This document shows, piece by piece, positions 18,709 through 21,940 of a stretch of DNA of 64,000 nt. The notes beneath the pieces were generated by a model. It had not been told where the DNA came from, searched no databases, and saw only the letters and a program-made list of their open reading frames with translations. This DNA is from an uncultured bacterium (GTDB lineage: Bacteria; Patescibacteriota; Saccharimonadia; Saccharimonadales; UBA4665): assembly GCA_963701245.1 (NCBI GenBank), contig OY969576.1:208456-272455 (forward strand), in the 5' to 3' direction. Numbering within the stretch: the stretch's first letter is position 1; every line of letters starts with the position of its first letter. Made by a program: the position numbers and the translations under genes.

Positions 18709-19572
18709 ATGAAAATAAGTATTATTATTCCAGTATACAACGAAGCCGATCGTCTTGATGCGTGCTTGCAAGCGATTCGCAATCAAGCGGAACAGGTCTT
18801 CGAAGTTATAGTCGTAGATAATGCCTCAACAGATCAGTCTGCGACAATTGCACGGTCGTATGACTTTGTGACCGTGCTCAGTGAAAATAGACAAGGTGTG
18901 GTGTTTGCTAGAGATACTGGCTTTAATGCAGCGCATGGCGATATTCTTGGCCGAATTGACGCAGACACACTAATACCGACTGATTGGACGTCGACTATTA
19001 CTAAACTCTTTGCTGATACACGACTTTCTGCAGTTTCGGGCAGCATACACTATTACGATCAAGCGTGGTGGCGAAGCGGCGATAAAATTGATAATTTTTG
19101 TCGTAAACATCTTGCACGGGTGCTGTCGAGATCAAATACCGTCTTTTTACAGGGTGCCAATCTTGCACTACGACGCGATGCCTGGCAATCAATACGTCAC
19201 ACGATGTGTCATTTAGATGGTATACATGAAGACTTTGATTTAGCTATACATTTGCAAATAAAGGGTTTTACAGTCCGATTTGACGAAAGATTACATGCAG
19301 GCATATCTTCACGTCGAGCGGACTCCGATATACTGACCTTCATCCGATATTTACAGGTTTGTCCACGTACTTACGCGGTTCATAATCTTAGGAGCAGAAT
19401 ATATATGTATCCGGTCGGTATACTCTGGATTGCAATCTTTATACCTTCATATATTGGGTATCGCGGCTATGACGCTGCGACCGGCGGGTTCTCTTTTGAG
19501 AAATTTTTATATGCCAAAAAATCACCAACCCGTTTAGATCCTTCTACTATCCTCTACGAAAAATTGAATTAA
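18709..19572 (+). CDS. Family 2 glycosyltransferase
   Basis: ISIIIPVYNEADRL...VVDNASTD...DAD motifs. Confidence 0.8.
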   Translation: MKISIIIPVYNEADRLDACLQAIRNQAEQVFEVIVVDNASTDQSATIARSYDFVTVLSENRQGVVFARDTGFNAAHGDILGRIDADTLIPTDWTSTITKLFADTRLSAVSGSIHYYDQAWWRSGDKIDNFCRKHLARVLSRSNTVFLQGANLALRRDAWQSIRHTMCHLDGIHEDFDLAIHLQIKGFTVRFDERLHAGISSRRADSDILTFIRYLQVCPRTYAVHNLRSRIYMYPVGILWIAIFIPSYIGYRGYDAATGGFSFEKFLYAKKSPTRLDPSTILYEKLN

Positions 19573-20087
19573 GCGAGATTAAGTTTTTCTGATAATTCTT
19601 GGGAATTGAGTTTGCTGCCATCGATCTTGATCACATCTTCGTTGTCAGTGGGCACTTCTAAGTGACTTGCTATGCGGTCAAAGTCTGCTTCTGACATATT
19701 TCCGTAGACACGAGTTCTCTGATTGTCCGATAGTTCTACCGCTCGCTTTTTTGCTAATTCCTTTGGCGTCGTAATCCAGATGACGTAGGCATTTGCATTT
19801 GCGTTCCGAGCAATATCCCTCAAATGTTGACGATCTCTTAAGAAGTTAAAATTTGTGTCAAAAATGACGCATTTGCCGGCTTTTAGTAAATCCGACGTTA
19901 AGTTATTTAGGTACGCATATAATTCGTTGTTTTCGTCATCGGTGTGCTTTGGTTCTCCAAACATCCTTTGCCGTTCATAATCGGCCCACAAGTGGACACC
20001 ACCAGTTTTTTCTTTAATCAGATGGGCAGCCGTGGTTTTACCAGCACCCGGATAGCCAACAAATAAATATAGCGTCGGTTTTTGCAC
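19569..20087 (-). CDS. AAA_33/zeta-toxin-like P-loop kinase
   Basis: LFVGYPGAGKTT Walker A motif. 172 aa. Confidence 0.6.
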   Translation of the reverse strand: MQKPTLYLFVGYPGAGKTTAAHLIKEKTGGVHLWADYERQRMFGEPKHTDDENNELYAYLNNLTSDLLKAGKCVIFDTNFNFLRDRQHLRDIARNANANAYVIWITTPKELAKKRAVELSDNQRTRVYGNMSEADFDRIASHLEVPTDNEDVIKIDGSKLNSQELSEKLNLA

Positions 20088-20128: not shown

Positions 20129-20863
20129 TTAACTATGTTGCAGTACTAATGATCCGGCATGTTGAAAACTAAAACTAGCATCACGATCGAGAGGATAGAC
20201 TTGAAGTTCCTGATGTACGTCTGGGGGAAGGGTTAATCCGAGCGGTAGTGTTGGCCATCCTGGTTGCAGTTGATTCGTAAAAGGCATTTGGCTGGCATGA
20301 GCTTGGGCGCTATAGTAGGTGCGTTCAATACTAGTTGCGGTTGCGGAGGTCCACCATTCCCCTTCTCCATTGTGATGTACTGTCAGTATATTGACAGGTT
20401 GTGATGGTGTCTCGTCACGAAGCAGAATCGCAGCCCTAAGTGCAATTTGATGGGAAGCATTATGATCTTGATGATCATGAAACCCTAAGGTAGCAAAGGT
20501 GCCGATGTTATGGATCTTGGCCCAGGTTACAGTTTCATAGGCTAAAATTTCTTGCTGATCAGTGAGTTTCCCGTCGTCGCCTGAGGCGAATTCAACCGAT
20601 TTTATGCCTAGACGACGGGCGCCTTCACTTCCTTCTTTTCGTCGATGACCTTTTGCAACATCAAAATTTGGATTCGAAAAGCGGACAAAATTTTTGGTGG
20701 ATGCGGAGCCCAGTGAGTAAATTAATTCATGGGCGACTATGCCATACTTTTCTGCAACTTCAAGTAAACTCCCGAAGGATATATCATCATCCGGGTGGGC
20801 GGTAATTATACCGATTTGACCGACAATTCGTTTTTGTTGAAATAAAGTTTCGATGGAGTTCAT
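20129..20863 (-). CDS. PIG-L/LmbE-family deacetylase
   Basis: ITAHPDDDISFG and HDHQDH motifs. Start moved to MNSIETL, because the longer ORF would run through a terminator hairpin. Confidence 0.7.
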   Translation of the reverse strand: MNSIETLFQQKRIVGQIGIITAHPDDDISFGSLLEVAEKYGIVAHELIYSLGSASTKNFVRFSNPNFDVAKGHRRKEGSEGARRLGIKSVEFASGDDGKLTDQQEILAYETVTWAKIHNIGTFATLGFHDHQDHNASHQIALRAAILLRDETPSQPVNILTVHHNGEGEWWTSATATSIERTYYSAQAHASQMPFTNQLQPGWPTLPLGLTLPPDVHQELQVYPLDRDASFSFQHAGSLVLQHS

Positions 20864-20888
20864 TTGCGAGCGTTTCCTTGTTGAGAAT

Positions 20889-21000
20889 ATAAAAAACAGG
20901 CCCGAGGCCTGCTTCATTCTTGGCAATTAAAGGAAACGAGCCTCGGTCAAGGACAGGAGGCGCAACAACAACTTACATTGAAATTACTGCTTTGTTTCAT
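20889..21000 (-). promoter_or_regulatory. Candidate leader-peptide transcription attenuator (Cys-rich leader)
   Basis: A 17-codon ORF MKQSSNFNVSCCCASCP* (complement 20947..21000). Three mutually exclusive pairings: GCCUC/GAGGC, CCGAGGC/GCCUCGG, and the CAGGCC-UCG-GGCCUG terminator followed by a U6 run (20891-20911). Confidence 0.45.
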
Positions 21001-21064
21001 AAGGCTAAAAGAATTGTACATGGTCTAGCTGGTACGATCAATTCGATGTAGCGACAGTCGTTTT

Positions 21065-21634
21065 TTAATAGTCGATACCTTTATTTGCGATATACCGCTC
21101 ATCAAAATGATGTTTAATTTTGGTCATATTTGTGGCTATGTCAACGAATGTAAGAAATTCATCGGGAAAATCCCGCCCAGTTACACAAAGATTTGTATGT
21201 GGCGAACGACTTTCAAGTAGTTTCTTAAACTGTGCTTTTGAGAGTAGGCCATCGTGCAGGGCATTGTTAATTTCGTCGCAAATCACTAAATCGAAAGATC
21301 CACTACTCACGGCCTTAAGGGCCTCTCTAAATGTTTCACGGGCGGCACGCTTATGATCAGCTGCCGATATATGTGAGGCGCTCAAGTCTCCCGCATTATA
21401 GAAACCTTTGCCTCCTTTATAAAAATATAATTGGTCTTTATATAATTCTTGAATATCGCGGATAAAGACGTGTTCACTTACACCCCAATATTTTATGAAT
21501 TGAATAAAAGCAACATTCCAACGATTGCCGAGAGCACGAGCAAGTAGGCCGAGTGCAGCGCTTGTCTTACCCTTACCTTCCCCAGTATAAACAAGTACTA
21601 GCGATTCTTTTTTCTTAAAATCCTCAAACGCCAT
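21065..21634 (-). CDS. Cob(I)yrinic acid a,c-diamide adenosyltransferase (CobO/BtuR family)
   Basis: VYTGEGKGKTSAALGLLARALG...FIQFIK...DLVICDE...VTGR pattern. Confidence 0.7.
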   Translation of the reverse strand: MAFEDFKKKESLVLVYTGEGKGKTSAALGLLARALGNRWNVAFIQFIKYWGVSEHVFIRDIQELYKDQLYFYKGGKGFYNAGDLSASHISAADHKRAARETFREALKAVSSGSFDLVICDEINNALHDGLLSKAQFKKLLESRSPHTNLCVTGRDFPDEFLTFVDIATNMTKIKHHFDERYIANKGIDY

Positions 21635-21682
21635 ATATAGCTATCCTAGCATGGATAGCGCCCACCTAATTACTCTACAGAT

Positions 21683-21940
21683 TTACGCTTTTACGAGTTT
21701 GTGTTTTTTGAGTGCTTCGTCAATACGTGGTCGGTCAAAGCCGATAATAATAGTACCGCCAATGTCGAGTACGGGGATGCCGCGCTGGCCAGATTTGTTG
21801 ACTGCTTCTAAGCCAGCATGTGGATCGGTTTCGACGTCTTTTTTGACATACTTCACACCTAATTTATCGAGGTATTCCATAGCTGCATGACAAAAGGCGC
21901 ACCATGACGCACTGTATACAATTGGTTCTTCGTTGCTCAT
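21683..21940 (-). CDS. Glutaredoxin/NrdH-like redoxin
   Basis: 85 aa with a CAFC active site and a GIPVL...G motif. Confidence 0.75.
   Translation of the reverse strand: MSNEEPIVYSASWCAFCHAAMEYLDKLGVKYVKKDVETDPHAGLEAVNKSGQRGIPVLDIGGTIIIGFDRPRIDEALKKHKLVKA

Follow-up and report, generated by a model that had tools for sequence, protein, structure and literature searches.

A putative cysteine-responsive leader-peptide attenuator upstream of a PIG-L family gene in Saccharibacteria

Transcription attenuators that sense amino acids through the translation of a leader peptide are classically represented by trpL, hisL, pheL, thrL and leuL of Escherichia coli and Salmonella, and by pheM, which precedes pheST. 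Here we analysed a stretch of 64,000 nucleotides from an uncultured bacterium of the Saccharimonadales (the window; positions 208,456 to 272,455 of contig OY969576.1, assembly GCA_963701245.1), in which a short leader upstream of a gene of the PIG-L family has the features of such an attenuator. As in the classical systems, a short open reading frame (sORF) is rich in regulatory codons, and its stop codon adjoins an antiterminator that overlaps an intrinsic terminator. The likeness extends to pheM–pheST of E. coli in that an aminoacyl-tRNA synthetase gene would be controlled, since in relatives of our organism the leader precedes the operon of cysS. The element differs from the classical ones in the amino acid that it appears to sense (cysteine), in its occurrence in Saccharibacteria (Patescibacteria/Candidate Phyla Radiation) and in having a PIG-L deacetylase gene as the first regulated gene. 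Moreover, its mRNA is probably leaderless or nearly so and has no Shine-Dalgarno (SD) sequence, and in most relatives the helix between its regions 1 and 2 (1:2 helix) is poorly formed or missing.

The earliest account of Cys leader peptides, which had no terminators, came from Actinobacteria (Seliverstov et al. 2005, PMC1262725). In Rhodobacterales, the upstream open reading frame uORFC-8-2, located before cysS and combining tandem Cys codons with a terminator, was proposed to be a ribosome-mediated attenuator sensing Cys-tRNA (Brewer et al. 2021, PMC8632094). Our element resembles uORFC-8-2 in its tandem Cys codons within or next to a stem, in its terminator stem with U-run and in the association with cysS. 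However, uORFC-8-2 belongs to another phylum, its Cys codons are at about positions 14–15 inside the first stem, whereas here they lie 5–7 codons ahead of a stop codon that abuts the antiterminator, and no PIG-L or lyase gene is found there. Homology of the two elements is unlikely, and they look like independent inventions. In mycobacteria, leaderless polycysteine sORFs act as translational attenuators, in which stalling of the ribosome disrupts a duplex that otherwise conceals the SD sequence of the next gene; one of the target operons holds mshA, which brings thiol metabolism into the regulon (Canestrari et al. 2020, bioRxiv 10.1101/834739). The present leader may share leaderless or near-leaderless initiation with these sORFs. 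Like them, it has a Cys-ending short frame before cysteine-related genes and, in the model proposed below, a Cys-stalled ribosome as the sensor. It differs from them in its terminator and antiterminator, as the mycobacterial sORFs have no intrinsic terminator, and in the SD sequence of its PIG-L gene, which is free of helices.

A literature search revealed no published account of leader-peptide attenuation in Saccharibacteria. The mechanism itself is textbook knowledge and its cysteine versions are known from Rhodobacterales and mycobacteria, but it is newly seen in this lineage and before a PIG-L gene.

Architecture of the leader

A preliminary description of the window, made from the sequence alone, had placed a Cys-rich sORF and three mutually exclusive helices on the minus strand between cobO and the PIG-L gene. 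Our reading of that strand (20600–21300) agreed with it throughout: the sORF, its Cys codons, the pairings of regions 1, 2 and 3 and the terminator with its six uridines are all located as described there, and both flanking genes were recognized by family matches (Table 1). Four of the 17 codons are Cys codons, and a scan of the whole 1.9-Mb genome for intergenic poly-Cys sORFs with a terminator behind them returned no other example.

Table 1 Positions of the leader elements and neighbouring genes in the window
Feature	Position	Strand	Basis or remark
Leader sORF MKQSSNFNVSCCCASCP*	20947..21000	minus	ATG at 21000, TGA at 20947; 17 codons + UGA
Tandem Cys codons UGU UGU UGC, proposed sensing codons	20962..20970	minus	sequence reading
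Fourth Cys codon UGU, two codons ahead of stop	20953..20955	minus	sequence reading
Sigma-70-like promoter TTGATC-17-TACAAT	21013..21041	minus	consensus scan, 9/12 match
Region 1 GCCUC, anti-antiterminator strand	20957..20961	minus	pairs with GAGGC (20944-20940) of region 2
Region 2 CCGAGGCU, antiterminator 5' strand	20939..20946	minus	begins at first base past the stop codon
Region 3 GGCCUCGG, antiterminator 3' strand	20902..20909	minus	complementary to region 2
Intrinsic terminator CAGGCC-UCG-GGCCUG (20911-20897) + U6 (20896-20891)	20891..20911	minus	sequence, fold, terminator scan
SD sequence AAGGAA of the PIG-L gene	20879-20874	minus	sequence reading
PIG-L/LmbE-fold deacetylase or amidase gene, 244 amino acids	20129..20863	minus	Pfam PF02585, E = 2.5e-11; AHPDD and HxDH motifs
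AAA_33 P-loop kinase gene	19569..20087	minus	41 nt downstream of the PIG-L gene
CobA/CobO-family gene	21634-21065	minus	family match, E = 4.6e-46; upstream neighbour of the leader
Glutaredoxin gene	21940-21683	minus	upstream of the CobA/CobO-family gene

The antiterminator helix between regions 2 and 3 has 8 bp in the window, seven of them Watson-Crick pairs and one a G-U pair. Region 3 corresponds to the 5' arm and the loop of the terminator plus one further base, the first of the 3' arm. The complete set of helices (1:2, 2:3 and 3:4) is present. We followed the proposal to fold the leader with RNAfold, and the minimum free energy (MFE) structure of the free RNA indeed combined the 1:2 helix with the terminator (−33.6 kcal/mol, z = −2.4). 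A complement of at least 7 bp between the spacer and the 5' arm of the terminator arose in 0.3% of the shuffled spacer sequences, and one that also started no more than 3 nt from the stop codon in 0.05%. The terminator ends 27 nt before the ATG of the PIG-L gene, leaving no room for a separate promoter, and all transcription of this gene therefore has to pass the terminator; the same is probably true for cysS in the relatives. The SD sequence of the PIG-L gene is located 3' of the U-run, outside every helix.

No SD sequence precedes the sORF in the window, and none was found before any of the 33 leaders described below. The preliminary description had noted this absence and treated it as a weak point of the model. 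We do not regard it as one: in 29 of the 33 leaders, a predicted promoter of the sigma-70 type (8 or more of 12 positions matched) has a −10 box, often TATACT or TATAGT, that ends 6–13 nt before the ATG. With so short a distance, the leader mRNA would be leaderless or nearly so. In the window the gap between the −10 box and the ATG is 12 nt, predicting a 5' untranslated region of about 5–6 nt.

A scan of positions 20500–21400 against Rfam (E up to 10) returned only matches at chance level, so that the element has no detected sequence similarity to the leader families collected there. We also considered a riboswitch and rejected it: among the leaders, regions 2 and 3 are joined by a spacer of differing sequence and length (20–35 nt), in which an aptamer would find no room.

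Conservation of the leader in Saccharimonadales

Orthologues of the PIG-L protein are rare and diverge fast. We found them in the same genus (L002, 41% identity), on a Logan contig (L006, 68% identity), in two GTDB genomes (L008 and L009) and in metagenomes of the Joint Genome Institute (L016–L019). Upstream of each of these genes there is a short ORF with Cys codons at its end; the sequence after its stop codon can pair with the loop and the 5' arm of a terminator, which is likewise present. Weaker PIG-L matches (L003–L005) had no Cys sORF upstream and were discarded, and a scan of metagenome contigs with the PIG-L profile gave only irrelevant PIG-L genes with 25% identity (L014 and L015).

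Further copies were sought with covariance models built from the leaders associated with these orthologues. Such copies were present in 7 of the 401 genomes sampled across the order and in 24 of the 310 genomes of the organism's own family, where they were distributed over 9 of 102 genera. A sample of 401 genomes from the whole phylum yielded the window itself and one dubious match (L050). This match, which looks like a small gene with an SD sequence and a long terminator belonging to it, was removed as a false positive, as was L027, which has no sORF. The window and the loci obtained with the two approaches amount to 33 leaders, and the 32 further loci all belong to Saccharimonadales.

The preliminary description had proposed a comparison of orthologous leaders, and its result was uniform: the sORF with Cys codons, the antiterminator and the terminator are kept at all 33 loci. 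The sORF is intact in every case and has 14–21 codons (median 16), with 2–4 Cys codons, typically 7, 6, 5 and 2 codons ahead of the stop. Of the roughly 510 residues encoded by the 33 leaders, 107 (about 21%) are Cys. The N-terminal two thirds are free to vary; conservation is seen at the C terminus, which follows the pattern C-C-x-[STP]-C-x-stop. The stop codon is UAG in about 29 of the 33 leaders, and an RNA word around it, C-UGU-AYA-UAG-G, is conserved. Within this word, 32 leaders have Cys two codons ahead of the stop, encoded without exception by UGU and never by UGC; the Cys codons farther upstream are a mixture of UGU and UGC. In three leaders the stop codon is shifted: in L046 it is a UGA within region 2 (GG-UGA-GG), and in L048 and L049 the sORF runs through the whole 13-nt region 2 before it stops. 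These shifts are compatible with the masking of region 2 by a ribosome.

The sequence of the antiterminator changes on both strands together. The pair CCGAGGC/GCCUCGG of the window corresponds to GGUAAGGC/GCCUUACC in L002, to GGUGAGGC/GCCUCACC in most leaders and to UUGAGGUC/GACCUCGA in L026, and L048 and L049 have a 13-bp version. In an unguided MAFFT alignment of nine leaders, 94.8% of the antiterminator positions were paired and three of the nine pairs showed compensatory changes; controls in which the partner strand was slid gave 32–49% pairing for this alignment and 27–51% across the antiterminator tests. With 14 leaders aligned to the model, 94.3% were paired, five of nine pairs were compensatory and none of 500 shuffles was as good, figures that lean towards the modelled structure to which this alignment was fitted. 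The consensus structure calculated with RNAalifold is the antiterminator helix. Several of its covarying pairs fall in the loop of the terminator and are therefore explained by the antiterminator alone. The terminator was 83–91% paired across the relatives, with 2–3 compensatory pairs.

Proposed mechanism and alternative explanations

We propose that the element is, very probably, a ribosome-mediated, Cys-tRNA-responsive transcription attenuator of the PIG-L gene. Transcription would start a few bases ahead of the AUG of the sORF, and a ribosome would translate the 17-codon leader while RNA polymerase moves ahead. With plentiful Cys-tRNA(Cys), the ribosome would reach the last codons or the stop codon and cover region 2, leaving region 3 to pair with region 4; the terminator would form and transcription would end at about position 20891. 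When Cys-tRNA(Cys) is scarce, the ribosome would stall on the tandem Cys codons 5–7 codons ahead of the stop, region 2 would pair with region 3, and the polymerase, no longer blocked by the terminator, would read through into the PIG-L gene and probably into the AAA_33 kinase gene. An operon with cysS as its last gene would be under the control of this element in most relatives. The start of transcription, translation of the sORF, ribosome stalling and the response to cysteine are all inferred from sequence.

To see how the position of the ribosome affects the structure, we folded nine leaders with a 28-nt ribosome footprint held unpaired, a purely thermodynamic model. Placing the A site on the stop codon gave the terminator in all nine leaders, and the terminator also resulted when the A site occupied the last Cys codon. 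For a ribosome whose A site was at the first Cys codons, the MFE structure was the antiterminator in seven of the nine. In the clade of the window, the ribosome-free RNA adopts the 1:2 helix and the terminator, which is the classical "off" default. The trp-type scheme with a mutually exclusive antiterminator and terminator, as originally suggested, is thus borne out by the 32 further loci, by the compensatory changes, by folding with the ribosome footprint and by the nature of the genes behind the leader, which include cysS and a pyridoxal phosphate (PLP) enzyme. That the sensed amino acid would be cysteine is indicated by these genes, as cysS, a lyase gene and the PIG-L gene are the ones that would be controlled.

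Several observations weigh against this model. Three leaders (L018, L025 and L047) have only two Cys codons. The antiterminator was not the MFE structure of L016 and L017 under a stalled ribosome, and the ribosome-free RNA of the clade in which the leader follows a DHH gene folds as the antiterminator; because of this preference, untranslated RNA of that clade would read through. The 1:2 helix, which had been predicted as part of the switch, does form in the MFE structure of the window (5 bp), but it is only 73% paired across the relatives, shows no covariation and is general only in its inner CUC/GAG part. Part of the covariation, as mentioned, comes from an alignment fitted to the structure. 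Finally, attenuation leaves the invariant UGU codon unexplained: in the model it does not take part in sensing, and a stall there would favour termination. Being wobble-decoded and followed by UAG-G, this codon may hold the ribosome over region 2, or it may belong to a mini-hairpin (CCUG-UAYA-UAGG). Alternatively, it may have been kept for some function of the peptide.

The last of these possibilities leads to a different explanation. The product of the sORF would be a Cys-rich micropeptide with a function of its own, for example in metal or redox binding or as a substrate for PIG-L, and the hairpin would be its own, partly leaky terminator, by which the proportion of peptide mRNA to enzyme mRNA is set. 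In favour of this, the conserved C terminus (C-C-x-[STP]-C-x-stop) is more than a plain run of Cys codons, 32 of the 33 leaders retain a Cys two codons ahead of the stop that attenuation does not require, and three genomes have a glutaredoxin gene two genes upstream. Yet the exclusive use of UGU for the last Cys speaks for a constraint on the RNA or on decoding rather than on the protein, and the product has only 14–21 residues, of which the N-terminal two thirds are unconstrained. The element also occurs directly before cysS and before the PLP enzyme, in both cases without a PIG-L gene, and a plain terminator offers no reason for covariation in a helix that joins the post-stop sequence to the terminator loop. 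We therefore consider a micropeptide very improbable as a replacement for the attenuator; the two could coexist. Another explanation is that the switch is real but responds to a signal other than Cys-tRNA charging, such as a thiol-reactive compound, a metal or redox effect on the nascent chain, or a release factor at UAG-G. The conserved word C-UGU-AYA-UAG-G and the prevalence of UAG among the stop codons would suit such a sensor, but cysS and an enzyme of Cys/Met metabolism are the targets expected of a sensor of Cys-tRNA, tandem codons 5–7 before the stop fit the classical attenuators, and the 33 leaders have no conserved N-terminal sequence of the kind seen in arrest peptides. We regard this explanation as very improbable.

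A further explanation holds that the hairpin only terminates cobO transcription, the sORF arose by chance and PIG-L is expressed by unregulated read-through; we give it hardly any weight. It draws on the lack of any other terminator between the cobO stop codon (21065) and the hairpin and on the modest z-scores of the whole-leader folds (−1.4 to −2.4). The comparative data already contradict it: the module accompanies PIG-L, the lyase or cysS rather than cobO, and the gene upstream is mostly a DHH phosphoesterase gene, elsewhere rplL or others; the sORF is intact at all 33 loci with its stop fixed beside region 2; and 29 of the 33 leaders have a promoter-like site of their own. The shuffle test (0.05%) points in the same direction. 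Attenuation by a ribosome sensing Cys-tRNA is accordingly the reading that we retain.

Putative regulated genes and cysteine supply

In the relatives, the usual gene order is recR – (x) – DHH/NrnA-like – leader – X – cysS, where X usually is the PIG-L gene. The cysS gene of L008 scored 365 bits against TIGR00435 (cut-off 340), those of L017 and L019 were recognized by the Pfam domains tRNA-synt_1e and CysS_C, and those of many further loci by sequence motif. In L025, the leader immediately precedes cysS. Slot X of L036, L037 and L045 is occupied by a PLP enzyme from the cystathionine gamma-lyase/synthase family (Cys_Met_Meta_PP), which scored 474 bits against PF01053. The same enzyme stands behind the leader in L048 and L049, where the upstream gene is different.

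The clade of the window departs from this order, as the leader–PIG-L module is located between cobO and the kinase gene, which is probably co-transcribed with the PIG-L gene. No second copy of the leader was found before cysS in this genome, where cysS directly follows the DHH/NrnA-like gene (recR-DHH-cysS; G000:C1:529345-533745, L010). Since the module sits between DHH and cysS in most relatives and not here, it has moved as a unit; judged by gene order, the leader travels with PIG-L. Some loci deviate individually. In L022 (2524-3078; G167), where the upstream gene is rplL, leader and PIG-L are followed, in place of cysS, by a PALP enzyme resembling threonine/serine dehydratases. L033 (G535:C3, about 993918-994004 region) has a 317-amino-acid ORF resembling a Zn-finger transposase just after the leader, together with a short PIG-L remnant, and is a decaying copy of the operon. 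The ORFs in the slot between leader and cysS in L031 (1602-2306) and L038 (1606-2139) lack the AHPDD motif and have no Pfam match; they are probably degenerate homologues of PIG-L.

The PIG-L protein (P0001) has the Rossmann-like LmbE fold, with a predicted local distance difference test (pLDDT) score of 92 for the AlphaFold model, and no variation was seen in the alignments at its metal-binding motifs AHPDD and HxDH. The fold search of the PDB matched diacetylchitobiose deacetylase, MshB, Orf2*, LnmX, TT1542 and BshB with template modelling (TM) scores of 0.55–0.66, but it could not be used to assign a subfamily, as all LmbE-fold enzymes match about equally at 13–19% identity. A sequence search of the PDB with the PIG-L profile gave nothing at E 0.01. 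The preliminary description had called the enzyme a deacetylase of the BshB/MshB type and had seen the rationale for cysteine sensing in the synthesis of mycothiol or bacillithiol. Neither proposal was supported. P0001 had no match in NCBIfam, including the models TIGR03445, TIGR04001 and TIGR04000, and the L008 orthologue reached only 18–26 bits against cut-offs of 182–224, so that an identity as MshB or BshB could not be demonstrated. MshC is also missing from the genome, whose only gene of the cysteinyl-tRNA synthetase family is the housekeeping cysS (C1:530845-532245); BshC was not searched for.

A role in the supply of cysteine is suggested by the genes that share the slot. In the genome of the window (G000), the best candidate for cysK scored 60 bits (cut-off 351) and the best for a Cys_Met_Meta_PP enzyme (PF01053) 22.7 bits (cut-off 27), and cysteine auxotrophy of the organism is probable. 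Of the five genomes in which the lyase follows the leader, four have no orthologue of this PIG-L protein, and 13 of the 16 with PIG-L behind the leader lack PF01053. The shared slot, the nearly complementary distributions and the lack of cysK and transsulfuration enzymes suggest that PIG-L is an enzyme of cysteine supply alternative to the lyase. One possible function, which we put forward with considerable doubt, is that of a cysteine-salvage amidase or deacetylase that is switched on under cysteine starvation and frees cysteine from a conjugate of the host. Its substrate could, speculatively, be mycothiol or bacillithiol, in a cleavage of the Mca/Bca type, or an N-acetylated cysteine derivative. 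If this is true, PIG-L would be a functional stand-in for the gene of the cystathionine gamma-lyase family that sister genomes have in the arrangement leader – X – cysS.

Saccharibacteria have tiny genomes with few regulators. A cis-acting switch with the ribosome alone as its machinery would allow such a reduced genome to set the expression of cysS and of a cysteine-supply gene. The attenuator would, in addition, serve as a regulatory label that places an uncharacterized, fast-evolving branch of the PIG-L/LmbE family in cysteine supply, and it provides a testable lead on how the epibiotic Saccharibacteria obtain cysteine from their hosts.

Two further observations concern the surroundings of the leader and the genome. 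The glutaredoxin gene directly precedes the gene of the CobA/CobO-type adenosyltransferase in all three genomes of the window clade (window 21065-21940; L002 407-1287; L006 3151-4025); this lineage is not known to make cobalamin. An identical Cys-rich frame of 42 codons (MSLRSCWYCGCHFWCCFCN...) occurs at least 10 times in G000, for example at C1:403761-403889, 430959-431087, 1121030-1121158, 1155138-1155266 and 1627689-1627817, and marks a multi-copy element, being probably an alternative frame of an insertion sequence.

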